Assembly: GCA_964544395.1 (NCBI GenBank)
Contig: CAZJAO010000002.1
Location: forward strand, 5,071 to 69,070
DNA length: 64,000 bases
DNA from: Candidatus Woesearchaeota archaeon
Lineage (GTDB): Archaea > Nanobdellota > Nanobdellia > Pacearchaeales > GW2011-AR1
Direction: 5' to 3'
The notes beneath the pieces were generated by a model. It did no database searches. It was not told the DNA's origin and saw only the letters and a list, made by a program, of their open reading frames with translations. How positions within the stretch are numbered: the first letter of the stretch is position 1; the number at the start of each line of letters is the position of its first letter. A program made the translations under genes and the position numbers. Shown piece by piece: positions 7,929 through 27,003 of the stretch.

Positions 7929-7984
7929 TTCCTATTTGGCTGCACAGCAAATCTTTAAAACTCTATTATAATACATATTTTTAA

Positions 7985-11702: not shown

Positions 11703-11726
11703 AAAGCGAGTTTTACTATTAACTTC

Positions 11727-13109
11727 ATGAAGATTTTCAAAAAAGAGGGAATCGTCTATGATGTTTTTAACAGAATTAGATTAAGAGACTTCTCCGGAAA
11801 CACAGGATTAGCAATTAAGAATAGTAGTTTTCAATTTTTCACTAATGCTGTTTCAAAAGTTGGAACACTTTTGTTCACTGTGATTATTGCAAGGCTATTG
11901 ATGCCAGAATTATTTGGACTTTACAGCTTGGCATTCTCAACAATTCTCCTTTTTGCCACAATATCTGATTTTGGAATTGGAAGCACTTTAGTGAGATTCA
12001 TTTCAAAAGAAATAGAAAGGCGAAATTTGAAGAAAGTTCGGGCTTATTTGTCTTATTTAGGAAAAATAAAATTTTTTATTATCTCTGTTTTAATCGTCGT
12101 TTTAGTTGTATCTGCAAGATTTATTTCTAACACTTTTTATAACAAGCCAATCTTTCTGGCTTTAATCGCGGGAACACTGTATATTTTATTCTATGGATTA
12201 ACCCTTCTACTGCAATCAGTTCTGCAATCCTTTAACAAATTCCGAGCTATCTTTTTTGGGGAAACTATATTCCAATTTTTCAGGATTATTTTAATATCTT
12301 TAGCAGTTTTATTGTCTTTGAAATTTGCACTTTCAAATGAACTCTTACTGTTTTATCTATTTCTAGCTCTTGGAGTTTCGTATCTCCTTGTAGCCCTCTT
12401 TTTAGGATATATACTTATTAGAAAAGTAAAAATCTTTGGGGCTGAAAAATTAGTCCTTTCCGGAAAACAAAAGAAACAGACAAATAAATTCCTGATTGCA
12501 TTATCTGCTTCTACTCTCTCGGGAATCTTATTCAGTTATATCGATAGGATTATGCTTGGGCATTTCGTGGCTGCAGAATTCATCGGTTACTATACTATCG
12601 CTCTCAGCTTTGTCAGTGCTGCGTCCGTATTTGCTGGATTTGGAAGCGCTTTATTGCCAATATTTAGCAGAGTAAATAAAAATAAATTAGAAATCGGATT
12701 TAAAAAATCAATTAAGCTTTCGTTGATTTTCGGGATAGTATCAACAATTTTAATCCTGATTTTAGCCTCTCCAATAATCTCTATTATTTATGGGAGAGAA
12801 TATCTGGCTGCAACAAATCTTCTGAGATTACTATCTCTATCTTTCTTTACCCTTCCTTTAAGCGGCTTGTATACAGTATATTTTATGTCTAGGAATAAGC
12901 CCCAGATTATTGCGAAACTTTCCATAATCTCTACCGTACTCAATATAGTTCTGAATTATCTCCTTATTACAACCTTATTAGGATATAGCAGTTTTGCAGC
13001 TACTTTTGGAGCAGGAATAGCTCTTTTGTTAAGCCAATTTTTCTACATAGCTGCCTTAGAGATTGCAAGAAGAAGAGATTTAAAAAAAGAAAACAAACCA
13101 ATAGAATAG
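11727..13109 (+). CDS. Oligosaccharide flippase (Wzx/MOP superfamily, AglR-like)
   Basis: About 12-14 predicted TM helices across 460 aa. The architecture is typical of polysaccharide-biosynthesis flippases. Confidence 0.6.
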   Translation: MKIFKKEGIVYDVFNRIRLRDFSGNTGLAIKNSSFQFFTNAVSKVGTLLFTVIIARLLMPELFGLYSLAFSTILLFATISDFGIGSTLVRFISKEIERRNLKKVRAYLSYLGKIKFFIISVLIVVLVVSARFISNTFYNKPIFLALIAGTLYILFYGLTLLLQSVLQSFNKFRAIFFGETIFQFFRIILISLAVLLSLKFALSNELLLFYLFLALGVSYLLVALFLGYILIRKVKIFGAEKLVLSGKQKKQTNKFLIALSASTLSGILFSYIDRIMLGHFVAAEFIGYYTIALSFVSAASVFAGFGSALLPIFSRVNKNKLEIGFKKSIKLSLIFGIVSTILILILASPIISIIYGREYLAATNLLRLLSLSFFTLPLSGLYTVYFMSRNKPQIIAKLSIISTVLNIVLNYLLITTLLGYSSFAATFGAGIALLLSQFFYIAALEIARRRDLKKENKPIE

Positions 13110-13164
13110 GGAGTATGTATTGATGCTTCATAATCTTTAAAAATAGAACAAATTTATCACTTTT

Positions 13165-13863
13165 ATGACGGAAAAATATTCTAGCGTTGCAATTATTCCA
13201 TTCAAAGAAAACAGTGAGAGAGTTCCAGGAAAGAACTTTAAAACTTTTGGGGGACAGCCGCTTTATCAGCATATTATTCAGAAAGCTTTGAAGAGCAATT
13301 TGGAAAAAATATTCATATGTACAAACAGCGAATCCGCGAGAGAAGAAGTTAAAAAAATGGGCCCCCGAGTGGAGATTCTTGGATGTCCTGATTGGTACTT
13401 TGGCAAAACTATTACTGGAGATAAGTTACTATCTGTTCCCGCAAAGGCAATTGATGCGGATATTTATGTTCAACTTTTTGCTACAGCCCCTTTCTTAAGA
13501 CCAGAGACAATTAATGATGCCATAAGCACTCTTCAAGAGAGAACAGAGTATGATTCTGTTTTAACTGTAATGAATAAACATGATTGGGCCTGGTATAAGG
13601 GAAATCCTATTACATATTATCCGGGAAATCTTCCTCGTTCTCAGGATGCTTCGCCTCTTGTGGTTGAATCTACGGGATTATATGCTATGACAAAAGAATC
13701 TTTGTTAAATTTGCAAAGAAGAGTCGGAAATCATCCTTATTTTTTGGAAGTGGATGAAATAGAGGGTTGGGATATTGATACTCCATTACAATTTAAATTA
13801 GCTGAACTATTCATTGAAAATATAGGTGAGATGGAAAAACTAACTAACAAAAAATATTTTTAA
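13165..13863 (+). CDS. Acylneuraminate/CMP-sugar cytidylyltransferase family protein (NeuA/KdsB-like)
   Basis: The N-terminus VAIIPFKENSERVPGKNFKTFGGQPL matches the AIIPAR.xS.RxPxKN...G.PL motif of the CMP-sugar synthetase family. Confidence 0.65.
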   Translation: MTEKYSSVAIIPFKENSERVPGKNFKTFGGQPLYQHIIQKALKSNLEKIFICTNSESAREEVKKMGPRVEILGCPDWYFGKTITGDKLLSVPAKAIDADIYVQLFATAPFLRPETINDAISTLQERTEYDSVLTVMNKHDWAWYKGNPITYYPGNLPRSQDASPLVVESTGLYAMTKESLLNLQRRVGNHPYFLEVDEIEGWDIDTPLQFKLAELFIENIGEMEKLTNKKYF

Positions 13864-13872
13864 TTATCAAAA

Positions 13873-14772
13873 TTATTTTTCTTTTTTAATAAAATCCAGA
13901 ACCTGAATGATTCCTCTTCCCAAATCAACGCAAGGATTATTTATCAGTTTTTGAGGAATATCTTCATAATAAGAATAAGGCGTCACTTTGTAATGGGATT
14001 GTCTTTTTGACTTAGAAACTTCTGATAGATATTCAATCTTGATATTTCCCCCCATTATTTCAACTATCATGGAAAATAAATCACAAACTTTGATGGGGTT
14101 GCCACCGGTTATTATAACTGTTTTATTTCGATATTCATCATTTAATATTTTTAGACTCAATTTTGCAGCATCGGATAGATGAATATATTCTCGTGTTTCA
14201 GAACCATCTCCAGGATATTTTATTATTCCTGTTGTAGCAGCTTCTTTTAGATAACGATACATGCTATTCTTTGCGCTATCCCCCTTACCATAAAGAGTTC
14301 CATATTGTAGGATAGTATAATCTAGTCCATATTGGTTCTGAAATTCTTTTACAAGATGTTCTGAAGCTTTTTTTGTAGATGAATAAATTCCTCCAGAGTT
14401 TCCTTGAGCATAAAGACTGCTGGCATAGACGAATCTTTTTATGCCATTATTTTTACAAGCTTCCATAATTATGCTATTGCCAAGAATATTGTATTTAATC
14501 GCCTCAAGTGGTTTTTCTATGCATTCTCCAATGTCTGCCATTGCCGCTAGATTATAGACTATATCTGAATTTTTAACAGCCTCATTAACTTTGGAATCAT
14601 CTAAAATATCTCCAATAATCATGTGGACACTTCCAAGAAATTTGTCATCAACATTTTTCCTATCAAAAACAGATACTTCATACTCCACATTAAGACACTC
14701 TGCAATCAGCGCATTTCCTAAAAAGCCGCTTCCCCCAAAAATTAATATGCGATTTCCAGATTTATTATCCAT
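13873..14772 (-). CDS. NAD-dependent epimerase/dehydratase (extended SDR)
   Basis: ILIFGGSGFLGNAL Rossmann motif and YSSTK catalytic dyad. Confidence 0.7.
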   Translation of the reverse strand: MDNKSGNRILIFGGSGFLGNALIAECLNVEYEVSVFDRKNVDDKFLGSVHMIIGDILDDSKVNEAVKNSDIVYNLAAMADIGECIEKPLEAIKYNILGNSIIMEACKNNGIKRFVYASSLYAQGNSGGIYSSTKKASEHLVKEFQNQYGLDYTILQYGTLYGKGDSAKNSMYRYLKEAATTGIIKYPGDGSETREYIHLSDAAKLSLKILNDEYRNKTVIITGGNPIKVCDLFSMIVEIMGGNIKIEYLSEVSKSKRQSHYKVTPYSYYEDIPQKLINNPCVDLGRGIIQVLDFIKKEK

Positions 14773-14789
14773 AGAATTTTTCTCTTTTA

Positions 14790-15734
14790 TTAGATGACAC
14801 GAGAGTTAAACTCCTGCCCCATGATAAGATTTAAAACTTCTTTTGTAGCTCCTGTTTCCATATCATATCTGCTTTTTACAGTACAACTGCCTATATGAGG
14901 AGTGATATAACAATTTGTCAAATCTTTAAGACCCCCCCGATAAGGTTCTTCAACAAAACTATCCAGTGCTGCAGATGCATTTGGATTTGATAATAGCCAT
15001 TTGTAAAGAGCGGATTCTTCTACAATCCCCCCTCTTGAGAGGTTCATTAATATAGCCTCTTTTTTCATCTTGTCTAGTTCTCTATAAGAAATAAAATCCT
15101 TGTTGGCTTTGTTTAAAGGTATATGCAAGGTCACAATATCGCATTTCTGGAGTATTCCATCAAGAGAAGAAATTTTGCCGGGTTCAACATCCTTTAACTG
15201 ATTGGCATCTATATCATTTATATAAATCTCTCGCGGATTGAATCCTTTTAATTTATTTGCAACTAATTTGCCAATTCGTCCATATCCAACTATTCCTACA
15301 GAACATTCAGTCAAATCTTTTCCAATATATCTGTTCCACTCTCCTGCCCTAACTCCTGCATCAGTATTCTGAATTCTTCTTAGCATATTTATCATCTGAC
15401 CTATTGTTAATTCTGCCACGGCATTAGAAGGCGCATCCGGAGTATATGTTACAGCTATTCCTCTTTTCTTGCATTCATCAAGGTCTACAGAATCTAAGCC
15501 TATTCCAACTCTTGCAATCAATTTCAAACTGGGGCATAAGTCCAAAACTTTTTTATTATAGAGCTCTATTCCTGCTATGATTGCATCTGGATTCTCTTTT
15601 GCTAAAAAGTCCATCATAGCCGTTTCTGTTATTTTTCTTTCAAAAGGATTGTATATAACATTTTGTCCTTCCAACAGTTTTCGAGATTCTTCTCCAAAAG
15701 GGTGTGTTCCAACAATAATCTTCAAATCTTTCAT
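14790..15734 (-). CDS. D-isomer-specific 2-hydroxyacid dehydrogenase (phosphoglycerate/glyoxylate reductase-like)
   Basis: GIVGYGRIGKLVANKL NAD-binding motif. A catalytic-domain Arg/Glu/His arrangement (SRGG...E...HIG) is present. Confidence 0.7.
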   Translation of the reverse strand: MKDLKIIVGTHPFGEESRKLLEGQNVIYNPFERKITETAMMDFLAKENPDAIIAGIELYNKKVLDLCPSLKLIARVGIGLDSVDLDECKKRGIAVTYTPDAPSNAVAELTIGQMINMLRRIQNTDAGVRAGEWNRYIGKDLTECSVGIVGYGRIGKLVANKLKGFNPREIYINDIDANQLKDVEPGKISSLDGILQKCDIVTLHIPLNKANKDFISYRELDKMKKEAILMNLSRGGIVEESALYKWLLSNPNASAALDSFVEEPYRGGLKDLTNCYITPHIGSCTVKSRYDMETGATKEVLNLIMGQEFNSRVI

Positions 15735-15778
15735 ATTTCTTCTTCTGAATTCTATTTTTTAAAGATTGTGTATCCCAA

Positions 15779-17134
15779 TTACATAACTGATTTTTTATAG
15801 AACTCTAAAATCTTCTTATTAATACTTTCGTAATATATTTGAGAGGGGTCTTTCTTTGAATCAAAATACATATTTTCATTCAATTCTTTTTTATAGAATT
15901 TAATCTGATTTTTATAGGAAGATTTATCTTTTAATTTATTAAAAATCCTGTCTAAACTAAGTAAATCTATGAACTTATCGTCGCTTTCCCATAAATCTTT
16001 CAATGCTTTATCTCCAAATCTGAATATTGGGATTGCATAAAGAAGAGCCTCATAAGCGATAGTGGTGTTATGAATAACTACAAAATCACTTTTTTCTAAG
16101 ATCTCTTTAACTTCGACATTTTTACCCAATGGATGAATATTTGTTTCAGAAATCAGATAAGTATAATTATTTATATCATCCATAGGATGAGCCGTTATAT
16201 CCAAAGTTATTTCAGGATGTTCTCTTGCAAATGCATTCAAGGTTTTTACAATCTCTTTGTTGCTTTCTTCATTTCCTTTTACACTTAAAAAAATTGCTGC
16301 CCTTTTGGGATTAAATTCTTCTTTTTCTTTTTTTATGTCTTTAATGGAATATTTTGGATTTCCTGCAATAATCAATCTTTTTTTATCAACATATTTTTCT
16401 TGAATCTCATAAGTGCTCATCCCCCACACGAGATTATAATCCGAGATTATGTTTTCATTGAGTATGCTTATTGGATTAAAGTCGGGATATTCTATAGTAA
16501 AACCATGCTGAAGATTAAATGTTGGTCTTCTCTCTTTCTTATGTATTAGGGTCATTATAGAATCTTCTCCAAATGCCTGCGAACAGAATGCAATATAGGC
16601 TTTAGGAGCATACTCATTATAAATTTCGTAAAACTGTTCTATTTTTCTGAATCTGGAATAAGTTCTGGTTAAAAAAAGAGAATAATATTTGCCAAGAGTA
16701 GCTTTCAGATTTGCTTCTCTGAATTTCTTCCAGATACCAAATAGTAAGGGAAGATTTGGGAAGCTAAAATGTCCTCTAAGAAATAAGTTTTTTAGCTTAT
16801 TTTCATAACAATCAAGCAAAAGAATTTTGTCCTCGGGGAATTTTTCTATGGCCTTTAGAAAGAATTCATGATGATCTTTTCGGGGCATAAAATAAGATGC
16901 CAGAATTCCGCCCGGGATACCCTTTACAGGATAATGTTCTTTGAAGAAGAGATATTTTATCTTTTTTGCAAATCTCTCAAAAAAACCAACATTCTGATTT
17001 TTATAAAAAGTGTAAGTCTCATCAGCCATTATTGGCCAAAGACCGATCCCCCTATGCTCCATCTTTGAAAAGAACTCTTTTAAAGTTTTAATAAATGGAA
17101 TTTTCTCAGACCATAAGTCTTTCTCATTTATCAT
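15779..17134 (-). CDS. Hypothetical protein, possibly a GT-B-like or capsule-biosynthesis-type transferase.
   Basis: 451 aa with no clear motifs. The C-terminal half (VVIHNTTIAYEALLYAIPI) resembles the donor-binding domain of GT-B or Capsule_synth-like proteins. This is a weak call. Confidence 0.25.
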   Translation of the reverse strand: MINEKDLWSEKIPFIKTLKEFFSKMEHRGIGLWPIMADETYTFYKNQNVGFFERFAKKIKYLFFKEHYPVKGIPGGILASYFMPRKDHHEFFLKAIEKFPEDKILLLDCYENKLKNLFLRGHFSFPNLPLLFGIWKKFREANLKATLGKYYSLFLTRTYSRFRKIEQFYEIYNEYAPKAYIAFCSQAFGEDSIMTLIHKKERRPTFNLQHGFTIEYPDFNPISILNENIISDYNLVWGMSTYEIQEKYVDKKRLIIAGNPKYSIKDIKKEKEEFNPKRAAIFLSVKGNEESNKEIVKTLNAFAREHPEITLDITAHPMDDINNYTYLISETNIHPLGKNVEVKEILEKSDFVVIHNTTIAYEALLYAIPIFRFGDKALKDLWESDDKFIDLLSLDRIFNKLKDKSSYKNQIKFYKKELNENMYFDSKKDPSQIYYESINKKILEFYKKSVM

Positions 17135-17729
17135 TTTTAACTACCCACCAGTCCGTTCTTGAGATTGTTGGTATTATTTTGGTTTTATTGGAAAATTCAA
17201 AAAGTGCTCGAAGAATATCTTTGTTGAATTTTTTATTAACTATATCATGTCCGGCCAGAATTCCATTCGGCTTAACCTTTGGAAAATAATTATCAATGTC
17301 CCTTTTTACATATTCATAGTCATGATTCCCATCAATGTAAATAAAATCCGCTTCAGGAATTTCTTTCACTGCATCATCTGAAAATTTTCTGATAAATACT
17401 ACTCTATCTTTATACTTCCCTAATTTCTTCTGCGTATCAAGGTACATTTTAGGTAGCCCCTTCTCGCTTGTTTCGGAATCTCTTTTTTTGTATTCTTCAT
17501 AAGATTGATAGGGGTCTATTACATAGAGTTTCTTGACGTTCAACTCTTTAAACATATTAAGTGCATTCTCGCCTTTGTACGTCCCAATTTCGACAACAGT
17601 GATTGGCTTATTGTTAAAATAATTCTTGGCAAATCTTACTGAATGCCTTGGGAAAGGTCTTACAAAGTTTATATTAAATTTCTTTCCAAGCATTTCATTA
17701 ACTTCGTGAAGTATCTTTAAATTTCTCAT
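17124..17729 (-). CDS. Class I SAM-dependent methyltransferase
   Basis: VVEIGTYKGENAL is SAM motif I. IYIDGNHDYEYV is typical of the Methyltransf_24/O-MT family. Confidence 0.55.
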   Translation of the reverse strand: MRNLKILHEVNEMLGKKFNINFVRPFPRHSVRFAKNYFNNKPITVVEIGTYKGENALNMFKELNVKKLYVIDPYQSYEEYKKRDSETSEKGLPKMYLDTQKKLGKYKDRVVFIRKFSDDAVKEIPEADFIYIDGNHDYEYVKRDIDNYFPKVKPNGILAGHDIVNKKFNKDILRALFEFSNKTKIIPTISRTDWWVVKNDK

Positions 17730-18640
17730 TTTACCCTGCTTTCTACCTCTTGAATAATAGCATCCTGCATTTTTATATTATACAGGGCATCAGGTTCGGA
17801 GACCAATAATTCACCCGCTCCTTTAATCGCAGATATGAATCTCCGAATAGAAACATTTAATGGATCCTCAACACACATGGTTTTTCCATCATATTCTAAT
17901 TTATTTCTGTAAACCCCTCCAACATTTTCTACTTTTCTCTCAAATTCAACTCCGTTTATGTAAAAAGTCATTTGTCTTGGTCTCTCTTCCTTTACTTTCA
18001 TTTTGTAAGACACAGGCACACCCCCATAATCAAAAGCAATTGTTGCAATCTCATTTCCTAGAAGAAAATCCAATCTTTCAATCGGTCTCTGCCCGAGAAG
18101 TTTAATTAGAAAACTGTTCATATGAGGGAGAACATCTGAAGCCATATTTACAAAGCCCTTTTTAGCAGGTTCCATGTAAACTGAGAATTTTTCAATATCG
18201 TTCTTAAGCGGTGCAGGAATTTTCTCTAAAAGAGAAATCCATTGGGTGTTTGTAGACAAAATTTTACCATGGGATTTTGCCAGATTAAACAACTCTTCAA
18301 CAACTCTATGATTATCATATTCGGAATCTAGAACAAGAGGTTTTTCACATAATACATGACTATTATAGCTGAGGCAACGCCTTATCTGTCTAGAATGATA
18401 TTCTGGAGGCGTGCAAATACTAACTACGTCTGGTTTTTCTTTTTCTAATAACTTTTCCAAATCCCAATAGGGCACGGCATCAATTCCGTAAGAAAGTTTT
18501 AGCTTTTCAGCCCTTTCTTTTGCAGTTTTTTCTGAAGATGTTAAAATAGCGACAACATCACATCCCACATTTTTAAATTCCCTTGCATGAAATTCTCCAA
18601 TTTTGCCCGGACCTAAAATCGCTGCTCTTAATTTCTCCAT
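17726..18640 (-). CDS. Gfo/Idh/MocA-family NAD(P)-dependent oxidoreductase
   Basis: AILGPGKIGEFHAREF...PDVVSICTPPEYH is the N-terminal Rossmann motif of the family. Confidence 0.7.
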   Translation of the reverse strand: MEKLRAAILGPGKIGEFHAREFKNVGCDVVAILTSSEKTAKERAEKLKLSYGIDAVPYWDLEKLLEKEKPDVVSICTPPEYHSRQIRRCLSYNSHVLCEKPLVLDSEYDNHRVVEELFNLAKSHGKILSTNTQWISLLEKIPAPLKNDIEKFSVYMEPAKKGFVNMASDVLPHMNSFLIKLLGQRPIERLDFLLGNEIATIAFDYGGVPVSYKMKVKEERPRQMTFYINGVEFERKVENVGGVYRNKLEYDGKTMCVEDPLNVSIRRFISAIKGAGELLVSEPDALYNIKMQDAIIQEVESRVK

Positions 18641-18652
18641 GTTAGAAACAGA

Positions 18653-21370
18653 TTAAATAATTCTTATTTCAGGATAAGAGGTTATGAATCTTACTCCCTT
18701 TTCTCTTAAATTTAAATTGTTTTTTATTATCTCATCAGTATAATTCCAAGCTAAAATATAAACAAAATCTGGAACGTTTGAGGAAAGATATTCTTTACTT
18801 CTTATTGGAATCTTTACGCCCGGAACAAATTTGTCATATTTTAGGGGATTATCCTCAACAATATAATCTATGTAACTATTGTCAATCTGGTAAAAATTTA
18901 ATGAAGTGGTTGCTTTTGCAGGAGCCCCATAACCAACAATTCTCTTGCCGTGGCTTTTTATTTCCCTTAGCAATTCTCTTGTTTTCTCTCGTTTGTCCAT
19001 TATCTTCTGAGCAAAATTTTGATAAGTAGAGAACTTATCCAATCCCAGGTTTCTTTCTTCATTTAAGAATCTTTCAACACTAATGTCTTTGATATGCCTG
19101 CCCCCTGCTTTTTGAACAAATACCCTTATGGAACCACCATGAACATCCAATCTTTCTAATTTGAATATTTCCATGCCATTCCTTTTGAAGAATTCATTCA
19201 ATGAAAGGGCGCTGAAATAAGACAAGTGTTCATGGTAGATATTATCAAAAGTCAGTCCCCTTATTGTATCAAGAACATACTGTGCTTCAATTACAAAAGC
19301 TCCGTCATCTTTGAGAAGCAATTTTACATTCTCAGTAAAATCTTTTATATCCTTGACATGTGCGAATACATTTGCTGCAGTGACTACATCTACTTTTCCC
19401 TTACTCTTTAATATCTCTTCAACTATTTCTTTATTCCAAAAACCAGTCAGGGTAGGAATTCCTGCATCATTCGCAATTTTGCTTACATTTTCCGCAGGCT
19501 CAATTCCAATAACTTTCATTCCCATTTCTTTGAAATATTTTAAGAGAGTTCCATCATTGCTTCCAATATCTGCGATTAAGGAATCACTATTTAATCTCAG
19601 TTCATTTCTCACTTTTTCAGCCATTTCTTTAAAATGGTCTCTTGTTGTTGCGGTTGTTGAAGTTAAAAATAGATAATGCTTGAACATTTTTTCAGGAGGA
19701 ACAACATACGATAATTGGCATAAATGACAATTCTCACAATACATCATTTCTAGAGGAAATAATTCCTCTTTGTTCAGGTCTTCTTTATCTAATAAATTGT
19801 TGGCCAATGGGCTTTTGCCGAGAGATAAAACCGATTTTAGGTTATTGCTACCACAGACTCTGCAATTATTTTGGAGACCAAATCCCTCATTTTTCTTAAC
19901 AGCATTTTTATAAGATTCTATTTTATCTGCCTTAACCAATTCGTAAGGAACAGTGTGTTTTCCATAATTTTCCTTTTTTCTTTCTCCAGTAACTAAATTA
20001 AGCAGAACGGTATCTTCAAGGAAAATTTGAGTATGGGCAAGATTTGGCGGAGTGATTACCAGGTCTCCCCCCCGAACAAGGTGATATTTGATTGGACTTG
20101 CTTCATCTAACAAATCTTTGTAAACGCTTACATAAGAGCCGGAAATTACAAGAACTTTTTGTTCTTGTTCAGGATGATAATGATTTCCCCTTAGTATTCC
20201 ACTTTTTTCACTTACATTATTTGTATCAATTAAACCAATCCAGTTTATAGGTTCAGGAAGGTAATAATTATCTATCACTCCTCTTCCATCCTTAAAAGAA
20301 TCCGCGCCCTTGACAATAATTTCTTCTCTTGAAAGAGGATCTCTTTTCTCATTGCTTTCTTCTAATTTTTTTAGTTCAAATACCGCGCTTCCACCATCCT
20401 CTAAAAATTTCATAGGATGTATTTTTCCTTTCTTTACCAGATTTCTATAAAATTCTATGGACCTCTTAATCCCCTCCTCCAGAGAAACTTTTGGTTTCCA
20501 TCCAAGTGATTGCAACTTTGTAGCATCAATAAATTGTTCTTGAATTTCTTGTAGATATGGGGGTCTGGAAGCAATTTCGATGTATTTATCCGGATTTTTT
20601 CCCATAATAATGCAGATTCTCTTTACCAAATCGCCTATTCTCAAATTTTCTGTTCCACCACAGCAATAAACTTCTCCATTTTTTCCTTTTTCAGAGACAG
20701 TCACGAATGCTTCAGCAACATCATCAATATAAACGAATTCTCTTACATGGTTCTCGGAATCTTTCCAAACTCTTACAGGCATATCTTTTTCTAATCGGAT
20801 TATAGAATTTGGAACTATTCTTGTAGTGTTAAAATCTCCCGGCCCATAAAAATTTGAGCTAGCAATAATCTTAATTGGCAACCCATAATTTCTTGCATAA
20901 GCCAAAGATATAATCTGCTGGCATGCTTTTGAAGAATCATAAACAAAAAGAGGCCTAAGAGGACTTTTCTCTGTATATGGAATTGGAGCTTCTCCAAATG
21001 CCTTATCGCTCGTTGAAACAACAATGCTCTTTATACTGCTTGCTCTTCCTGGATTCCTGCAGGCTTCAAGAACGCTTACAAGTCCCATTATATTTATATC
21101 AAAAGCGGTTGCAGGGTCTTCAGCGCAATATTTTTGTATTGCCCATGAAGCGAGGTGGTAAACCTCTTCTATTCCATATTCAACAATGACTCTTCTTAGC
21201 AAATTAGAATCTCTAACGTCCCCAATTACAGATATATCTGGTCTTTCTTTATCATCTCTGATGTAATTTTCTTCCTTTTCTATTCCGACGACAAAATGGC
21301 CCATCTCTTTCAACTTCTTGACTAGAACTGTTCCAAGGAACCCATCGTGGCCAGTAATAAGCGTGTTCAT
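18653..21370 (-). CDS. Tri-domain fusion of about 905 aa. The N-terminal domain is an NDP-sugar 4,6-dehydratase-like SDR. The middle is an RmlC/WxcM-like cupin (ketoisomerase or epimerase type). The C-terminal half is a zinc-binding C-methyltransferase of the TylCIII-like C3-methyltransferase family.
   Basis: The N-terminus has LITGHDGFLGTVL and YDSSK. The middle domain has GNHYHPEQEQ...LAHTQ (cupin His ligands). The C-terminus has CRVCGS...CENCHLCQ zinc-finger motifs, the SAM motif ADIGSNDG and IYHEHLSYFS from the C-methyltransferase C-terminal domain. Confidence 0.6.
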   Translation of the reverse strand: MNTLITGHDGFLGTVLVKKLKEMGHFVVGIEKEENYIRDDKERPDISVIGDVRDSNLLRRVIVEYGIEEVYHLASWAIQKYCAEDPATAFDINIMGLVSVLEACRNPGRASSIKSIVVSTSDKAFGEAPIPYTEKSPLRPLFVYDSSKACQQIISLAYARNYGLPIKIIASSNFYGPGDFNTTRIVPNSIIRLEKDMPVRVWKDSENHVREFVYIDDVAEAFVTVSEKGKNGEVYCCGGTENLRIGDLVKRICIIMGKNPDKYIEIASRPPYLQEIQEQFIDATKLQSLGWKPKVSLEEGIKRSIEFYRNLVKKGKIHPMKFLEDGGSAVFELKKLEESNEKRDPLSREEIIVKGADSFKDGRGVIDNYYLPEPINWIGLIDTNNVSEKSGILRGNHYHPEQEQKVLVISGSYVSVYKDLLDEASPIKYHLVRGGDLVITPPNLAHTQIFLEDTVLLNLVTGERKKENYGKHTVPYELVKADKIESYKNAVKKNEGFGLQNNCRVCGSNNLKSVLSLGKSPLANNLLDKEDLNKEELFPLEMMYCENCHLCQLSYVVPPEKMFKHYLFLTSTTATTRDHFKEMAEKVRNELRLNSDSLIADIGSNDGTLLKYFKEMGMKVIGIEPAENVSKIANDAGIPTLTGFWNKEIVEEILKSKGKVDVVTAANVFAHVKDIKDFTENVKLLLKDDGAFVIEAQYVLDTIRGLTFDNIYHEHLSYFSALSLNEFFKRNGMEIFKLERLDVHGGSIRVFVQKAGGRHIKDISVERFLNEERNLGLDKFSTYQNFAQKIMDKREKTRELLREIKSHGKRIVGYGAPAKATTSLNFYQIDNSYIDYIVEDNPLKYDKFVPGVKIPIRSKEYLSSNVPDFVYILAWNYTDEIIKNNLNLREKGVRFITSYPEIRII

Positions 21371-21502
21371 TAATCTATAACTATAATATCTCTTTTTAAA
21401 GATTTATGAAACAAAAATTCATATTCCAAATCTTCTTGTTTTGGCTGAATTTACTGATTTGAGCATCATAAAATTTAAAATCTGTCACCATCTTATATCT
21501 AA

Positions 21503-22435
21503 ATGAATAAAACAGATGTGCCTATTCTTATTCTGGCATTCAATAGACCGGATACTACTTTCAAGGTTTTCAATGCTATTAGAGAAATAAAACCCAAAAA
21601 GCTTTTTATTGCTGTTGATGGACCTCGTCCAGGAAATGAAATGGATGAGATAAATGTAAAAAAAGTAAGAGAGATTTTAAGCAATGTGGATTGGCCATGC
21701 AAGGTAAAGAAAATATTCAGGGAAAAAAATCTTGGTTCTTTAAACTCTACTGTAGGTGCTATCACTTGGTTCTTTGAAAATGTTGAATACGGTGCGATAG
21801 TAGAAGACGACTGCCTGCCAAGTTCGGATTTTTTTAAATTTTGCGCAGAGCTTCTTGAAAAATACAAAGATGATGAAAGAATAATGCACATAGGCGGAAA
21901 TAACTTTCAGAGGGGCTGGACTCGTGATAAATACTCTTACTATTTCTCCTATTACCCTTACATGTGGGGTTGGGCTACTTGGGCAAGAGCTTGGAAGAAA
22001 TTTGACCGAACAATGGGAGCTTACCCCGAGTTGAAAAATAAAGGATATTTTAGAGATATCTATCCAAACAAATTAGAAGAAACATATATTAGAAGGCTTA
22101 TTGAAGGCACCTATTCAGGAAAGAATCCTACTGGATGGGATAATAACTGGATATTTACTCTTTTGACAAATAATGGGTTGTCCATAGCTCCAAATAAAAA
22201 CCTTGTAAAAAATATCGGGTTTGTTGAGAATTCTGTTCGTACAAAACCTATAGACTCTTTTTTGTCAATAGACACTCAAGAAATGGAATTTCCTTTGAAA
22301 CATCCGCCATTTATTTTCCGAGACCGTAAAACTGATGAGAGATATATACGATGGATTTATCGGACTAAACTGAGAAAATATTTCTTAATGAAAACGGGAT
22401 TATACAAACTTTTTTCTAAGAACAAAAAAAACTGA
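21503..22435 (+). CDS. GT-A-fold glycosyltransferase (GnT-I/HlpA-like family)
   Basis: PILILAFNRPD...FIAVDGPR...IVEDDC. The EDD motif lies in a GT-A Rossmann context. Confidence 0.4.
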   Translation: MNKTDVPILILAFNRPDTTFKVFNAIREIKPKKLFIAVDGPRPGNEMDEINVKKVREILSNVDWPCKVKKIFREKNLGSLNSTVGAITWFFENVEYGAIVEDDCLPSSDFFKFCAELLEKYKDDERIMHIGGNNFQRGWTRDKYSYYFSYYPYMWGWATWARAWKKFDRTMGAYPELKNKGYFRDIYPNKLEETYIRRLIEGTYSGKNPTGWDNNWIFTLLTNNGLSIAPNKNLVKNIGFVENSVRTKPIDSFLSIDTQEMEFPLKHPPFIFRDRKTDERYIRWIYRTKLRKYFLMKTGLYKLFSKNKKN

Positions 22436-23209
22436 TTGGGGTCTTATCTTGTGCCAAGCTTTGGTTGCATGATACTTTTTGTTCCATGAAAATATCTTGC
22501 TTAAAAGAATATCGAGATAAATAACAAGTTTGGATTTCTTGAATCCATTGTTAATATCCCATATTCTTCTGGTTGTTGGAAATAAAACCCTATCTTCTGA
22601 TAGAATTTCCAATCCATTTTGAAGGATTATTTGTTTGAAAATATTTAATGGAATCCCTCTCTCTCTTAATGTTAAGCCCTTTCTCTCTTTTCTCCAATCC
22701 CCCATGGAAACTATTGGTTCTCTCAAAAGAATAAAGCCCCCTTTTTTTAGGATCCTCGTTAATTCCTGAATTACAAAGCTAATATTAGGTATGTGATGAA
22801 GAACAGCAAAACAGGTGATTAAATCAATGCTTCCCTCGGGCAAATCAATTTTGCCTGAAGCATTAGGTGAAATATATTCTATCTTCTTACCCCCTATTTT
22901 TCCGACTCTTAATTTATGAGATGGCTCTAAAATTATTACTTCCTTGATTCTATCTATTATTGGGAGGAGTTCATCTCCGGAAGCTCCTCCAAAACTAAGA
23001 ACTTTGCTAAATTCTTTTATCCTTTTTATTTTATTATACCCATGAATCTTATTGAGCTCATGAAACTCATAAAAATATGGGGCTTCGGAAATCAGTCCAG
23101 AATATCCTTCTTTTTCATCGTTAAACCATGCTTCAATTTGTTTTCTATTGAAATCATCCCCGTATAGTTTCTTACCTGAAAAATATTCTTCAAAATTTTC
23201 GTCTTTCAT
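22400..23209 (-). CDS. Class I SAM-dependent methyltransferase
   Basis: Methyltransf_11/23-like. GSIDLITCFAVLHHIPN...LKKGGFILLRE. Confidence 0.55.
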   Translation of the reverse strand: MKDENFEEYFSGKKLYGDDFNRKQIEAWFNDEKEGYSGLISEAPYFYEFHELNKIHGYNKIKRIKEFSKVLSFGGASGDELLPIIDRIKEVIILEPSHKLRVGKIGGKKIEYISPNASGKIDLPEGSIDLITCFAVLHHIPNISFVIQELTRILKKGGFILLREPIVSMGDWRKERKGLTLRERGIPLNIFKQIILQNGLEILSEDRVLFPTTRRIWDINNGFKKSKLVIYLDILLSKIFSWNKKYHATKAWHKIRPQSVFFVLRKKFV

Positions 23210-24285
23210 ATCTCTTTGTTAAAAATCTCAATTAATTTTCTTTCTGAAATCTCAAATTGGAAGTTCTTCTTGAAAAATTGCCTAATTTTATTTGAATCTA
23301 TTTTCTTTTTTGCCATGATTTTTAATTTTTCTGCTAGGCTGTTCCAATCTCCCCGTTTTGCCACATAGCCCAAAAAATCTTTCGACACCATCTCTTTTAT
23401 TGCTCCGGTATTATAAGATAAGACGGGAATTCCGAACATAAAAGATTCTAAAATAACTAAAGGAAAAGATTCATTCTCATATTGTGTCGGAAAGATAAGA
23501 GAATTTGCCTCGCTCAATACTTGCTCCTTCTCTTTTCCAAACTTGGGACCAAGATAAGTGCATTCTTTTTCCAAAGCGTATTCTTTTCTTAGCGAAAACC
23601 ATTTCTCTTCGGTTTCTTTATCTGGAAAACTTCCGACAAACAAGCACTTGAACTTAATTTGACTCTTTAATAAATTGCAAATTCTTAATGTATCTAATGC
23701 GCCCTTTGTTTCATACATATTAGACAAAAATAATAAAACTAATTCTTTTTTCTTTTTCCTATTGCTTAGAACCGCTTCAAACTTTTTATCATCTAGTTCG
23801 TCTTTTATCCCGTTTGGAACAAAGTAGACATGATCTTTATCAAAAATGGTTGACACTTCATCATAAAGTAAGGGAGAGAGTATAATCATCTTGCTGTTCC
23901 CAAAAACAAATTTTGCATATCTGGAAAATTTAAGTCCTTTAGTATGTGTTTGAAAGATAACTTTCTTTCCAAATAGTTTGCATTCCAGAACATAAATGCT
24001 GTCTCTTATAAATGCGAAACCTTTAACCGGAATCTCAAAATAAATTAAGTCTGGTTTGAATGAGATTAATTCTTTGAGCAGTTTAAAAAATACTGCAAAA
24101 GCACCCATGAACTTCTTGGCATTAATAGAACCCATCTCATCCAGTTTGTCAAAATAGTTAATTTTTATTTTTTTCAATTCAAAATTTTTATTCATCTCTT
24201 TTCCGTTGAAGTATAATTCATTCATTATGGATGCCCCGTGTGTTGGGGGGGGAAATCGACCTAAAAATAAAATTTTCTTTTTCAT
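23206..24285 (-). CDS. Glycosyltransferase family 4 (GT-B, retaining)
   Basis: The C-terminal E-x7-E motif is ESFPLVILESFMFGIPVL. Confidence 0.7.
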   Translation of the reverse strand: MKKKILFLGRFPPPTHGASIMNELYFNGKEMNKNFELKKIKINYFDKLDEMGSINAKKFMGAFAVFFKLLKELISFKPDLIYFEIPVKGFAFIRDSIYVLECKLFGKKVIFQTHTKGLKFSRYAKFVFGNSKMIILSPLLYDEVSTIFDKDHVYFVPNGIKDELDDKKFEAVLSNRKKKKELVLLFLSNMYETKGALDTLRICNLLKSQIKFKCLFVGSFPDKETEEKWFSLRKEYALEKECTYLGPKFGKEKEQVLSEANSLIFPTQYENESFPLVILESFMFGIPVLSYNTGAIKEMVSKDFLGYVAKRGDWNSLAEKLKIMAKKKIDSNKIRQFFKKNFQFEISERKLIEIFNKEI

Positions 24286-25010
24286 TCTATATATCTCAGG
24301 TATATTATTGCCTTTAAGCTTCTTAGCACTTTAGTCTTTGAATGTTTGAAATCGGTAATTAATCTATAAAACCATTCTAATCCGAGGGTGCTAAATATCT
24401 TTGGGGCCCTCTTCTTTTTTTCCAATAAAAAATCTAATCCTGCTCCAACATTAAAAAATAATTTTGTCTTATCAAATAGTTTATCCGTAAGGAAATTTTG
24501 TTTTGGGCATCCCAGTCCAATCCAGACGTATTCTATTTTTTTGGATTTGATAATCTCTGCAATTTTCTTTATTTCTTCCTCAGAAAATTCCCCTTCTTTT
24601 ATGTATGGCGGATTATAGCAGAATAAATTGCTCCTCTTAAGATAAGGATATTTTTTTAATATTTTTGTCAGGTCTTCTTCTTCCAGCCCAATAAATAACT
24701 GCCTTGAATTAGGAAGAACTTTATTTTCAAAAATCTGTTTTGTAAAATCAGGTCCCGTTAGTCTTTTTATCCTCCTTAAATTTTTGAGGGAAAGAAAAAG
24801 GGATACAACGAATCCGTCTATGAAATTAATAGTGTGGTCCTTGAATGTGTCTTTAAACTTTGTATCTTTAGCAAAGAAGAATAAGTCATGGGAATTGATG
24901 AAATTGAAAATATATTTATTTGGATCTGAAACTTTTTCCTTAAGAAAAGATTTCAAATCTCTAATTTCTGTGAAAGATAATTTCTTTTCCATTATTCTAT
25001 TTTTATCCAC
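24282..25010 (-). CDS. WecB/TagA/CpsF-family glycosyltransferase (GT26)
   Basis: RLTGPDF...QLFIGLEEED...VWIGLGCPKQNFL...NVGAGLDFL matches the GT26 conserved blocks. Confidence 0.7.
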   Translation of the reverse strand: MDKNRIMEKKLSFTEIRDLKSFLKEKVSDPNKYIFNFINSHDLFFFAKDTKFKDTFKDHTINFIDGFVVSLFLSLKNLRRIKRLTGPDFTKQIFENKVLPNSRQLFIGLEEEDLTKILKKYPYLKRSNLFCYNPPYIKEGEFSEEEIKKIAEIIKSKKIEYVWIGLGCPKQNFLTDKLFDKTKLFFNVGAGLDFLLEKKKRAPKIFSTLGLEWFYRLITDFKHSKTKVLRSLKAIIYLRYIE

Positions 25011-25879
25011 CCTTCTGGAAGACGGTCCTCCTCTTTCTCTACATTTGTAAATTGCATAAATTCTTTTGGAGCAATCACTATCTTTTTAGGATTCGGATTC
25101 AAATATCCTGCCCACCAGCTCAGAGCACTGTTCGCCAAAATATTATGTTTGCATAATTTCATGACTTCCAAAACATGATACCCCGTATTGGGACAATCTG
25201 AGTCTTCAATAAAATATAACTCCGCCCCCATATCTTTAAGGTTTTCTTTGCACCACTTAATATCGTCAGAAAAGACATAAAACTTGGCATTTTTTACTCT
25301 TTTATTGATTATCTCTATAGCTTTTTTATAATAACTAAGGTCAAGCACTGTTGCATTCTTCAAAGTCAATAAATCGCCTCTTCGGACGTGAAGGCTAATT
25401 GAATTTTCTTTTGAGATTTTATTCAACAGGGGCATTATGGGGGATCTATACTCTTCTCTTAGAGTGAATTCTCTCTTAATTTGGTCTTTTACATCCATAA
25501 AAAATTTTTCCCTGCCTAGATATCCCCGAAGATAAGAATTGTCTGGAATCTTATAAAAATCATCTAAAGAGCCGTGGCTCGGAAAATAAACGACGTTTCG
25601 GTCAAATAATTTGTATTTTCTTATAATTTTATCAATTGGCCTAAACCCAGTTTTAATTACAAACTTTCTTATCTCTTTTTTAGATGCTTCCTGGGCAGTG
25701 ATATTCAATTTTCCTAATTCAAATTCCCATAATCCGCCATATTTTTCCCATGTAGGCCACGACTTTAAATAAGTAGTATCCAATTTTAACTCGGTATGAT
25801 CATGTTTTGCAAGAGCCAATGCTGCCGCATACACATACATTGAATTTCCAAGCCCTCTTCCGATTTCTGTGATTATCAT
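24992..25879 (-). CDS. Alpha-1,2-fucosyltransferase-family glycosyltransferase (GT11)
   Basis: GRGLGNSMYVYAAAL (GGLGNQMFQYA motif), SLHVRRGDLL (HxRRGDY), YVFSDDIKWCKENL and ILANSALSWWAGYL..PKKIVIAPK are all GT11 signatures. Confidence 0.8.
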   Translation of the reverse strand: MIITEIGRGLGNSMYVYAAALALAKHDHTELKLDTTYLKSWPTWEKYGGLWEFELGKLNITAQEASKKEIRKFVIKTGFRPIDKIIRKYKLFDRNVVYFPSHGSLDDFYKIPDNSYLRGYLGREKFFMDVKDQIKREFTLREEYRSPIMPLLNKISKENSISLHVRRGDLLTLKNATVLDLSYYKKAIEIINKRVKNAKFYVFSDDIKWCKENLKDMGAELYFIEDSDCPNTGYHVLEVMKLCKHNILANSALSWWAGYLNPNPKKIVIAPKEFMQFTNVEKEEDRLPEGWIKIE

Positions 25880-26967
25880 TTTAATGCGCCTTCATAAATC
25901 ATTCTTAATTTATTATTCCTGGATTCTATTGAAAATTTGCCTGTTTTTATTTCATTTAAGCAATTTTTTGACATAGTCTCTCTGAGATTACCCTCTTTTA
26001 TTAGTTTTTCTGTGTTTTCTTCCAATTTATTTATTAAATCAGAATAATCACTTATATTATTCAAATGTGAAACATCGAAATTCTCTGGTTCTTCAATAAC
26101 AAAACCTGTTTTATTATTTGTTATTATCTCTCTTCGAGACAGCCCTCCTACTGTTACAACTGGCAATCCAAAGCTCATGGCTTCTGTTAATCCAAAACCA
26201 AAAGTATCTGTATAAGAGGGATAAACAAAAATATCCGCCTTGGGATAAATTTCTTTAAACAATCTCTCTTGAGAGACAAATCCCAAAAATTCTATTTTGC
26301 TGTTTGCCGAATAATTCTTTTTAATTTCTTCCGAAACATCAGAGACAATTATTCCATAAACATTTTCGTGCTTCTTTGTCAATCTATCAATAACTTCCAA
26401 GGCATGCAATCCTCCCTTAAAGATAAATCTTCTTGAAGAAAATAGGAGGGTTATTCTTTTTGATTCTTTTCTAACAAATTTCCTAATAGGTATTCCTGGA
26501 TAAACAATCTTTATTTTATTGCTAATTTCAGGAAATTCTTTTGAAATACCGTCTGCAGACCATTGAGTCCATGCCAATATCTTTTTGCAATAATCACTTT
26601 CTAAAATCTTTAGAATAGCTTTCTTATTATTAATTCTCCCCGACGCCCAGAATTGATTCACATACTCTACATCACATACCCATGGATTTTTATTAAGGCT
26701 TAAACAATGTGCGCAATGAATAAGGTCATATCCTCTTTGCGTTTTTGTTAAATGTGCATTAGGCAATCCCGGCATTAGCTTTAAGATTTTTTTTATATAA
26801 TGTTTTATTTTCTGTTGTAATCTCAATTTCTTTCCACTTTGGATTAATTCAAAGTCCTCCGCATTTACGTACTGAACGTTATCTGGCGGATTTTGCCTAA
26901 GATATAAATAATAGGGAGAATCAGAAAATTTCCAAGGACTTTGTAGATAAACTTTTATTTTATTCAT
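25876..26967 (-). CDS. Glycosyltransferase family 4 (GT-B)
   Basis: FGFGLTEAMSFGLPVV is an E-x7-E-like motif in a GT-B C-terminal domain. Confidence 0.65.
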   Translation of the reverse strand: MNKIKVYLQSPWKFSDSPYYLYLRQNPPDNVQYVNAEDFELIQSGKKLRLQQKIKHYIKKILKLMPGLPNAHLTKTQRGYDLIHCAHCLSLNKNPWVCDVEYVNQFWASGRINNKKAILKILESDYCKKILAWTQWSADGISKEFPEISNKIKIVYPGIPIRKFVRKESKRITLLFSSRRFIFKGGLHALEVIDRLTKKHENVYGIIVSDVSEEIKKNYSANSKIEFLGFVSQERLFKEIYPKADIFVYPSYTDTFGFGLTEAMSFGLPVVTVGGLSRREIITNNKTGFVIEEPENFDVSHLNNISDYSDLINKLEENTEKLIKEGNLRETMSKNCLNEIKTGKFSIESRNNKLRMIYEGALK

Positions 26968-27003
26968 ATTTAATATAGTCAGAAACTTATTTTAAATGTT
27001 AAT

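Follow-up and report, generated by a model that had tools for sequence, protein, structure and literature searches.

What does a single archaeal protein make when it joins three enzymes of sugar-nucleotide metabolism, and is it a single protein at all? The question is raised by a reverse-strand gene in a 64,000-nucleotide stretch of a Candidatus Woesearchaeota genome (contig CAZJAO010000002.1; hereafter, the window), which encodes 905 amino acids in four parts: an extended short-chain dehydrogenase/reductase (SDR), a disordered linker, a cupin and a full-length TcaB9/MtmC-type sugar C-methyltransferase. A preliminary description of this DNA had recognised the 905-residue open reading frame (ORF) and assigned the three domains as an SDR, a cupin and a zinc-dependent sugar C-methyltransferase, and both hold, with Pfam, AlphaFold combined with Foldseek, and alignments to PDB structures in agreement. 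What our analysis shows directly is that all three domains are there with their catalytic residues intact, that the fusion recurs and that it has a conserved partner, an oxidoreductase of the GFO/IDH/MocA family (GFO below). We consider it fairly probable that this one polypeptide performs consecutive steps towards a C-methyl-branched 6-deoxy sugar nucleotide destined for a surface glycan or N-glycan.

A continuous and recurrent fusion

An ORF of 905 codons would be impossible as a product of chance in DNA of this composition (about 34% G+C). The G+C content, overall and at the first and third codon positions (GC, GC1 and GC3), is even over the SDR, linker, cupin and C-methyltransferase and equal to that of the adjoining genes, and no ATG, GTG or TTG start lies near either domain junction. 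An independent ENA assembly contains exactly this 905-residue protein (P0001). A homologue search of JGI, ENA, NCBI, Logan and Tara data returned about 30 full-length homologues with the identical three-part layout at 35–72% identity, and the window-type order of SDR, cupin and C-methyltransferase is seen again in independent assemblies at 53–72% identity.

The sole apparent split case is a relative whose gene was annotated in three pieces (215, 536 and 49 residues); the second of these (P0006) is 90% identical to the C-terminal 58% of the fusion. Many genes of its contig (L001; ENA ERZ25039473 contig_51755) are broken by frameshifts, the DegT gene, for example, being present as pieces of 152 and 326 residues. 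The L001 DNA aligns continuously with positions 1–2718 of the window gene at 86% identity, and the reading frame changes only once, near residue 205, within the SDR domain and away from the domain borders. We read the L001 gene as a frameshifted copy of the same continuous fusion, and because the genes of this contig are frameshift-broken, proteins P0006 and P0048 are unfit to serve as natural split forms. Given the recurrence in independent metagenomes and metagenome-assembled genomes (MAGs), and a split relative that is best explained by a frameshift, the gene encodes a genuine single polypeptide and is not a chimera. The preliminary description had allowed that relatives might always have the three parts separate, and here the picture is mixed: the whole fusion recurs, but syntenic clusters carry the SDR alone, and other Woesearchaeota have a cupin followed by an SDR–C-methyltransferase protein.

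Catalytic residues of the three domains

Over its final 405 residues, the protein can be aligned from one end to the other with solved sugar 3-C-methyltransferases, namely MtmC (4rv9, 279 bits), KijD1 (5t64, 255 bits) and TcaB9 (3ndi, 244 bits). The zinc cysteines C503, C506, C545 and C548, equivalent to C15, C18, C56 and C59 of the TcaB9 chain, and the S-adenosylmethionine (SAM) motif D601-I-G-S-N-D-G607 are invariant in an alignment of 30 homologues (A1). So are Y566, H671, Y712, E714 and H715, which the 3ndi alignment places opposite TcaB9 Y76, H181, Y222, E224 and H225 (chain numbering +2), residues that Bruender and Holden are said to have mutated as part of the active site. Thus, everything by which a TcaB9/TylC3-type enzyme is recognised is present, namely the four-cysteine zinc subdomain, the SAM domain together with PF08484, and each of the TcaB9 active-site positions, so that the C-methyltransferase assignment, as originally made, is as secure as sequence analysis allows. 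The methyl group goes to C3 in TcaB9, TylC3, KijD1 and MtmC and to C5 in NovU; in the window enzyme the methylated carbon may, by homology, be C3, with C5 also possible.

The SDR domain is matched by Pfam at residues 4–303 (PF01370, 153.6 bits; PF16363, 147.1 bits). It carries the NAD-binding motif T6-G7-x-x-G10-x-x-G13, and its strand β2 ends in E31; an acidic residue at this position favours NAD over NADPH. The catalytic residues are S120-D121-K122 and Y144-x3-K148. In a review of nucleotide-sugar dehydratases, GalE epimerases have [ST]...Yx3K only, without the acid/base pair, whereas dTDP/UDP-glucose dehydratases have [ST]DE, GMD has [ST]SE, and CDP-glucose 4,6-dehydratase and the inverting UDP-GlcNAc 4,6-dehydratases have [ST]DK (PMC8987622 Table 1). 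The window SDR bears the [ST]-D-[EK] plus Y-x3-K signature of dehydratases and fits the last of these classes, with which it shares [ST]-D-K...Y-x3-K. HMMER aligns its S-D-K to the T-D-E of the dTDP-glucose dehydratases 8shh and 6bi4, and a search with the active-site region alone ranks dTDP-glucose 4,6-dehydratases first, the S-D-K motif being conserved within the window clade only.

The window SDR has the extended SDR fold and the TGxxGxxG motif in common with CDP-glucose 4,6-dehydratase, PseB/LegB and RmlB, and its best NCBIfam matches are dehydratase models, but every one scores below its equivalog cut-off: TIGR01181 (RmlB) 152.4 bits versus 365, TIGR02622 (CDP-glucose dehydratase) 113.5 versus 278, TIGR04180 (LegB) 109.6 versus 475, TIGR01472 (Gmd) 43.5 versus 415 and TIGR03589 (PseB) 18.4 versus 408. 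Among the reductase and epimerase models, GalE reaches 64 bits, Fcl 60 and RmlD 34. Because the scores fall under the equivalog cut-offs, we call this SDR only dehydratase-like and place it in no named dehydratase family.

A search with the SDR domain yielded 982 homologues. Two fusion fragments aside, the nearest are stand-alone proteins of about 313–337 residues from Parcubacteria, Pacearchaeota and Methanococcoides (52–68% identity), some of them nearer to the window domain than several fused homologues are; the domain sits in a clade of its own, made up of SDRs of about 313 residues from DPANN archaea, bacteria of the candidate phyla radiation (CPR) and methanogens, whose listed members bear pipeline or generic names only. 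Stand-alone orthologues at 64–66% identity are divergent from a DegT aminotransferase gene in a Parcubacteria genome (L089) and a Pacearchaeota genome (L091), and in L089 a hexapeptide acetyltransferase also lies beside the pair, which makes up the standard dehydratase/aminotransferase/acetyltransferase trio. Thus, SDRs of this kind are paired with consumers of a 4-keto-6-deoxy sugar, both in the fusion, with the cupin and C-methyltransferase, and as stand-alone orthologues next to DegT.

Two further loci bear on the same point. In L008, a Nanoarchaeota MAG, the fused SDR is of another type (SSCSIYG); directly upstream of the fusion are genes for a textbook RmlB (STDEVYG), for an RmlA-like nucleotidyltransferase and for an RmlD-like protein. 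In L093, a window-type fusion is preceded by a stand-alone SSCS-type SDR (5217–6179) that is 73% identical to the fused one in P0008 (residues 1–317), so that the SSCS-type SDR occurs both fused and free beside the core formed by the cupin and the C-methyltransferase. Given these two arrangements, RmlB and the window-type SDR are interchangeable beside the same set of cupin, C-methyltransferase, GFO and GT17 glycosyltransferase. No RmlB-like gene other than Gmd, the GDP-mannose 4,6-dehydratase, was found in the 64-kb window. Taken on its own, a role as a 4,6-dehydratase is the best reading of the SDR step, and one that we hold likely.

Between the SDR and the cupin, a stretch of about 25 linker residues (KIHPMKFLEDGGSAVFELKKLEES...) is unique to the window protein: it is present in no fused homologue, and columns 374–400 of alignment A1 are filled by the window sequence alone. 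The linker matches the C-terminal tail of the stand-alone SDRs, which align to residues 1–326/335.

Pfam matches to the cupin region remain below threshold (PF00908, 17 bits versus a cut-off of 27), and a Pfam scan of the protein gave no match to PF05523 (FdtA). An AlphaFold model of residues 335–500, for which 27 homologues were used, shows a β-barrel followed by one helix, with a predicted local distance difference test (pLDDT) score of 85.5 and a predicted template modelling score (pTM) of 0.79. In Foldseek searches of the PDB (E ~4e-8 to 1e-6; TM 0.57–0.72 on the target), this model matches the 3,4-ketoisomerases QdtA, FdtA, HCAN_0198, WlaRA and FdtD, an RmlC homologue and the CapF cupin. 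The top matches are all 3,4-ketoisomerases, at 14–20% identity, whereas the CapF cupin is both the best PDB sequence match and the Foldseek match of highest identity (24–25%). The CapF cupin is a Zn-dependent epimerase in which H290 binds the Zn (PMC5393024).

The residues invariant in the family (alignments A1/A2) are R394, N396, H397, H399, P400, Q402, Q404, N443, H446, L457-N458-L459-V460, G462, R464, H472 and T473. Among them, H397-x-H399 corresponds to the His-x-His pair of ketoisomerases and CapF; CapF H288/H290 and a later histidine align to H397, H399 and H446, and the position of the metal-binding Glu295 of CapF is taken by Gln404. In an alignment to 7pvi, the three residues with catalytic roles in RmlC, a His, a Lys and a Tyr, correspond to H397, K405 and Asn458, respectively. 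Thus, the window cupin has the fold of FdtA, QdtA, WlaRA and RmlC and keeps the His-x-His and the RmlC His and Lys positions, but differs in its low identity, the missing Pfam matches and the Asn in place of the RmlC Tyr. We considered a canonical RmlC 3,5-epimerase and rejected it on account of Asn458 and the sub-threshold PF00908 score. The domain is best described as a predicted nucleoside diphosphate (NDP)-keto-sugar cupin that would abstract a proton beside the carbonyl, non-canonical with respect to RmlC; it may be an epimerase or a 3,4-ketoisomerase, both of which fit. Its subfamily is small: of 1.84 billion cluster representatives, 279 match at E ≤ 1e-3 and only 69 at E ≤ 1e-10.

One core, four kinds of SDR

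With each GTDB species represented by one genome, a scan recovered the cupin–C-methyltransferase core at 423 loci. All full-length matches to the window protein fall in MAGs of Woesearchaeota or Nanoarchaeota. The core itself extends to Pacearchaeota, Altiarchaeota, Methanobacterium, Methanosarcinales, Patescibacteria, SAR86, Pseudothioglobus, Actinomarina and Flavobacteria, and is especially common in Pelagibacteraceae, complete genomes included. The JGI pipeline gives homologues of the fusion the name [quoted passage not shown].

When the SDRs were typed at 89 loci with a C-methyltransferase match (the window, 80 scan loci kept and eight metagenome contigs), four types proved to be joined to the same core. 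Three of these are in the order SDR–cupin–C-methyltransferase: type a (STSDK), found in the window and a handful of metagenome contigs but in 0/80 species representatives; type b (SSCS), found in L008; and type c (PSTHV), found at 64 loci, mostly in SAR11, and carried by the complete Pelagibacter genomes NZ_CP159811.1 and NZ_CP172839.1 and by Pseudothioglobus NZ_CP179200.1. Type d (STSE...YDEPKR, UXS/GMD-like) is present at 12 Woesearchaeota loci (L024, L028, L029, L032–L034, L039, L040, L042, L049, L052 and L073, all Woesearchaeota/Nanoarchaeota MAGs), where a stand-alone cupin, 52–66% identical to that of the window, is followed by an SDR–C-methyltransferase of about 767 residues ("STSEVYG...YDEPKR") with a GFO gene 0–2 genes downstream, as in L028 (cupin, 9872–10441; SDR–C-methyltransferase, 10450–12753). 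Two-domain cupin–C-methyltransferase proteins of about 540 residues were also found (L010–L012). For the type-c SDR, the nearest PDB entry is 6VO6 (86 bits), which is probably Cj1427 of Campylobacter jejuni. The label dehydratase-like, given to the SDR in the preliminary description, thus suits the small clade of the window but does not extend to most members of the family, whose SDRs are without the acid/base pair.

The recurrent independent fusions of SDRs to the core argue for selection coupling the SDR step to the steps of the cupin and the C-methyltransferase. We tentatively propose, as a possibility that we rate somewhat short of even, that the cupin–C-methyltransferase pair is a portable "C-methyl branching module" fused at least four separate times to different keto-sugar-generating SDRs, its partners being, with the same reservation, a 4,6-dehydratase type, a UXS/GMD-like type, an apparent Cj1427-like C4-oxidase (in SAR11, Patescibacteria and Actinomarina) and the SSCS type. 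If so, a methyl branch would be added to different sugar scaffolds, undescribed C-branched sugars would be on display in DPANN archaea and in the most abundant marine bacteria and, to our knowledge, these would be the first C-branched sugars reported in Archaea.

Proposed pathway and its alternatives

In the pathway that we envisage, the activities and their order, the methylated carbon, the nucleotide carrier and the role of the GFO enzyme are all predicted. The SDR would oxidise an NDP-hexose or NDP-N-acetylhexosamine at C4, using Tyr144/Lys148 and tightly bound NAD+, and dehydrate it across C5/C6, Asp121 and Lys122 serving as acid and base, respectively, giving an NDP-4-keto-6-deoxy sugar. 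The cupin would next take a proton beside the keto group through His397/His399, possibly with a metal held by His397, His399, His446 and Gln404, so that C3 or C5 is epimerised or the keto group moved. The TcaB9-type domain would then form an enolate and transfer the SAM methyl to the carbon next to the keto group (C3 by homology), the remaining keto group would be reduced by the GFO enzyme, the neighbouring Methyltransf_24 enzyme may add an O-methyl group, and glycosyltransferases of the cluster would install the sugar, with AglB at the cluster edge.

The proposal that the GFO enzyme is the ketoreductase of the pathway follows from its distribution: it is found beside dehydratase- and decarboxylase-like fused SDRs and is absent beside all 64 genes of the STHV type (type c). 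Its orthologues, 48–59% identical between loci, lie directly downstream of every type-a and type-b (P0008-type) fusion, and a GFO gene of about 300 residues is near several type-d fusions. We suggest that it performs the final reduction for fused SDRs of types a and d, which look like producers of a keto sugar. Against PDB and NCBIfam, the generic Rossmann half of the enzyme alone matches known structures, the match to KijD10 (24 bits) being limited to this fold; an assignment of its target carbon was accordingly dropped.

Several observations weigh against this pathway. The SDR scores far under every dehydratase equivalog cut-off, and by whole-domain score it is about equally near to GalE-like epimerases and to dehydratases; moreover, dehydratase-derived reductases can keep acidic residues after the Ser/Thr, as in the "STDY" of RmlD. 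In CapF, which offers the cupin its closest solved relative, the SDR–cupin order is the same and the SDR is a reductase. A strong Gmd 7.5 kb from the fusion could supply the 4-keto sugar instead. The catalytic half of the GFO enzyme resembles nothing characterised, and the NDP-sugar enzymes of this family, KijD10 and WlbA, act at C3, not C4. A search of the 64-kb window for a hexose-1-phosphate nucleotidyltransferase of the RmlA type found none; the only cytidylyltransferase there is PseF/KdsB-like (CTP_transf_3, 64 bits), a type that presumably activates CMP-sugar acids, not hexose phosphates. Finally, rigid packing of the domains is not predicted: the full-length model has confident domains throughout (mean pLDDT 84.6) but a pTM of 0.53 and disorder at residues 319–347. 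A fixed arrangement of the domains thus finds no support in structure prediction, and channelling, if it occurs, is suggested by the recurrence of the fusion and not by structure.

The alternative that fares best is a CapF-like route in which Gmd makes GDP-4-keto-6-deoxymannose, the cupin epimerises it, the C-methyltransferase methylates it and the fused SDR acts last, as a C4-ketoreductase, giving a GDP-6-deoxy-3-C-methylhexose, much as has been proposed for virenose in Coxiella. The reductase role stays alive because of the nearby Gmd, the precedent of CapF and the sub-threshold profile scores. Both the window and L002 have Gmd within 5–7.5 kb of the fusion, GT11, a family that uses GDP-sugars, is represented in the cluster, and GDP-6-deoxy-lyxo-4-hexulose reductase (2pk3) is among the PDB matches (86–90 bits); the paucity of dehydratase acid/base pairs in the family at large points the same way, as does CapF itself, whose cupin is the best sequence match and whose SDR, in the same order, is an NADPH reductase (PMC5393024). 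The window SDR, however, bears the full [ST]DK–Yx3K signature, dehydratase hidden Markov models outscore reductase models by far, and its stand-alone orthologues pair with aminotransferases, as dehydratases do. Moreover, Gmd already has plausible partners in the small cupin and the DegT–cupin aminotransferase immediately after it, and the always-adjacent GFO enzyme would be left without a role. E31, too, suggests a preference for NAD over NADPH. We therefore regard the CapF-like route as unlikely, though it is to be taken seriously.

In a ketoisomerase variant, the cupin would be an FdtA/QdtA-like 3,4-ketoisomerase and the GFO enzyme a KijD10-like C3-ketoreductase, so that the keto group is moved to C3 and the methyl possibly placed on C5, C4 or C2. 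The Foldseek ranking, the His-x-His pair and the Asn at the RmlC Tyr position, which speaks against a canonical 3,5-epimerase, are all in line with this variant, as are the C3 chemistry of NDP-sugar GFO enzymes and the presence of KijD10 among the weak PDB matches. It is nevertheless quite unlikely: PF05523 is not matched, identity to the CapF epimerase cupin is higher (24–25% versus 14–20%), the KijD10 match covers the Rossmann fold alone, and all the catalytic residues of TcaB9, which acts on a 4-keto sugar at C3, are kept, while 3,4-ketoisomerisation is chemically impossible once C3 is methylated.

The fusion could also be incidental, with the SDR keeping its ancestral job of feeding the protein of about 450 residues and the other enzymes of the syntenic clusters, and the cupin, C-methyltransferase and GFO genes forming a mobile cassette with no coupling or channelling. 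In L089, L090 (Methanococcoides sp. SA1) and L091, the orthologous SDR is indeed stand-alone, flanked by a 310-residue gene and by the gene of about 450 residues, which follows directly; in the window, the cupin–C-methyltransferase, GFO and Methyltransf_24 come between the two, and the disordered linker and low pTM would suit loosely tethered parts. We consider this improbable, given that the same fusion is kept at 53–72% identity in at least five other lineages, that the clusters of L002, L093 and L094 are without the ~450-residue gene and that three other SDR types have independently been joined to the same core. An artefact, in which a frameshift or a faulty assembly had joined two or three neighbouring genes, as the relative called in three fragments might suggest, is hardly credible in view of the broken L001 contig with its continuous alignment and frame switch inside the SDR, the intact fusions in JGI, ENA and NCBI assemblies, the uniform composition and the junctions free of start codons.

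Relation to known systems

The preferred pathway, from dehydratase through cupin and C-methyltransferase to GFO, is built from familiar parts. All three domains belong to known superfamilies, the chemistry proposed is conventional and multi-domain sugar-nucleotide enzymes are well known (CapF, FdtD, ArnA and MtmC), so that the surprise is moderate. By contrast with the window domain, which forms the C-terminus of a 905-residue fusion within an archaeal cell-surface glycan cluster, TcaB9, KijD1, MtmC and TylC3 are stand-alone enzymes of about 410 residues that act on dTDP-sugars in actinomycete antibiotic-deoxysugar pathways. For a 2,6-dideoxy route of the mycarose or TylCIII type, which the preliminary description named as an example, there is no indication, and no 2,3-dehydratase is seen in the neighbourhood.

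CapF (Cap5F of Staphylococcus aureus) resembles the window protein in its SDR–cupin order and in its cupin, the closest solved sequence relative, but its SDR is a short NADPH-dependent C4 reductase without the Asp-Lys pair, it has no methyltransferase domain and it has Glu295 where the window has Gln404. In the C. jejuni heptose pathway, the C4-dehydrogenase Cj1427, the cupin epimerase Cj1430 and the C4-reductase Cj1428 act in turn (PMC10680097). The logic is the same, in that an SDR makes a 4-keto NDP-sugar, a cupin acts beside the keto group and a reductase ends the sequence, but the C. jejuni enzymes are separate, use GDP-heptose substrates and involve no C-methylation, and the window SDR resembles dehydratases, not Cj1427.

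A targeted search of a literature collection with thin coverage of these enzymes brought up no characterised fusion of C-methyltransferase, dehydratase and cupin in archaea. The novelty claimed for a trifunctional enzyme needs qualification: no characterised member was found, but the architecture is neither rare nor unseen, being already present in public databases, unnamed or named automatically. What is new is a sugar C-methyltransferase that sits in the clusters for primary surface glycans, both in archaea and in abundant marine bacteria, a cupin subfamily dedicated to it, the repeated fusion to different SDRs and the dehydratase-type fusion of the window, which is rare even within the family. 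Characterised C-methyl-branched sugars come nearly all from actinomycete antibiotics, with a few from bacterial lipopolysaccharides, and are made with stand-alone methyltransferases acting on dTDP-sugars. The family would bring C-methyl branching into the primary surface glycans of DPANN archaea, candidate-phyla bacteria and SAR11, which probably shape phage and host recognition. A route to branched deoxysugar nucleotides that takes one or two polypeptides could be of practical use in glycoengineering, and the swapping of SDR partners offers a natural experiment in the rewiring of sugar pathways through domain fusion.

The glycan-biosynthesis cluster

The fusion gene lies within a glycan-biosynthesis cluster of about 24 kb, with SecDF on one side and AglB on the other (Table 1).

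Table 1. The fusion, its domains and selected neighbouring genes; positions are those of the window.
Feature	Residues or length	Position	Strand	Evidence or remark
Fusion ORF	905 aa	18653..21370	-	ATG start (ORF listing)
Extended SDR	aa 1-317	20420..21370	-	Pfam PF01370/PF16363
Linker	aa 318-347	20330..20419	-	pLDDT < 50 for aa 319-347
Cupin	aa 348-500	19871..20329	-	AlphaFold model and Foldseek
Sugar C-methyltransferase	aa 501-905	18656..19870	-	PF08421 + PF13489 + PF08484
Zinc subdomain PF08421	aa 503-563	19682-19864	-	80.1 bits versus cut-off 31.3
SAM-binding domain PF13489	aa 581-735	19166-19630	-	63.1 bits
C-terminal domain PF08484	aa 743-900	18671-19144	-	168.8 bits, profile positions 2-160 of 160
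GFO/IDH/MocA oxidoreductase	304 aa	17726..18640	-	PF01408; starts 13 bp downstream of fusion
Methyltransf_24 class I methyltransferase	201 aa	17124..17729	-	PF13578
Conserved protein	451 aa	15779-17134	-	no Pfam family
Conserved protein	310 aa	21503-22435	+	no Pfam family
SDR	330 aa	10710-11702	+	best NCBIfam GDP-L-fucose synthase, 89 bits, below cut-off
DegT aminotransferase with C-terminal Cupin_2	495 aa	27004-28491	-	LegC-like, 241 bits, below cut-off
Cupin	128 aa	28469-28855	-	immediately after Gmd
GDP-mannose 4,6-dehydratase (Gmd)		28852-29940	-	404 bits; stand-alone
AglB/STT3 homologue	918 aa	30531-33287	-	Pfam STT3 models weak, 32 bits each

The Methyltransf_24 protein has homologues in L094 (43% identity) and L002, and the syntenic clusters without the cupin–C-methyltransferase have no gene for it either; it is possibly an O-methyltransferase acting on the same sugar. 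A GT17 glycosyltransferase adjoins the fusion in types a and b (for example, L002 9001–9864, L008 13838–14722, L093 9931–10752 and L094 2683–3546) and in 20/64 type-c loci, forms the C-terminal part of the fusion itself in P0009 and P0014 (1156–1180 residues), and is likely to be the transferase for the methylated sugar in the family. No GT17 was found in the 64-kb window, which presumably uses another glycosyltransferase of the cluster in its place. The 330-residue SDR is 53.5% identical to the SDR directly after GFO in L094 and has an "SSACIYP" motif, which we take to be that of GDP-mannose 3,5-epimerase; it could be a partner of Gmd, serving the fucosyltransferase-like enzyme of family GT11, or could belong to the methyl-sugar route.

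The window from 11727 to 29940 is syntenic, at 35–66% protein identity, with L089 (GCA_026002795.1), L090 and L091. The genes in common are those for a methyltransferase, GT1, WecG, GT11, the DegT–cupin protein, the 310-residue protein, the SDR, the ~450-residue protein, CTP_transf_3, a 299-residue SDR and a flippase. The closest SDRs there, at 56–66% identity, are stand-alone, and none of the three clusters has the cupin–C-methyltransferase, the 304-residue GFO or Methyltransf_24. Synteny across a CPR bacterium, a methanogen and a Pacearchaeote implies the exchange of whole clusters between domains.

Some further features of the window deserve mention. The DegT–Cupin_2 protein is a second fused sugar-modifying enzyme, kept at 61% identity in Methanococcoides (L090). 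The 451-residue protein is faintly similar to BFO_1060-type glycosyltransferases ("surface carbohydrate biosynthesis protein"), and the AglB/STT3 homologue is a divergent oligosaccharyltransferase. Positions 13165–15734 hold the PseF/KdsB-like cytidylyltransferase, the 299-residue SDR and a phosphoglycerate-dehydrogenase-like 2-hydroxyacid dehydrogenase, to which relatives of the region add inositol-monophosphatase-like, SIS and 404-residue GFO genes; this looks like a second pathway, for a CMP-activated sugar or acid.

Besides the AglB/STT3 homologue, this piece of an archaeal chromosome holds genes for prefoldin, SecY, Rpb3 and DUF655, a cluster of ribosomal-protein genes, tRNA genes and a single 5S rRNA gene; its host is a DPANN (Woesearchaeota/Nanoarchaeota-like) archaeon. 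The 5S rRNA gene (3499–3612) stands beside a tRNA-Leu gene, the two lying within 3353–3612, with no 16S or 23S rRNA gene nearby, and unlinked rRNA genes are typical of DPANN-like archaea. A tRNA cluster of Leu-CAA, Arg-CCT and Gly-TCC lies upstream of SecF (7734–8056).

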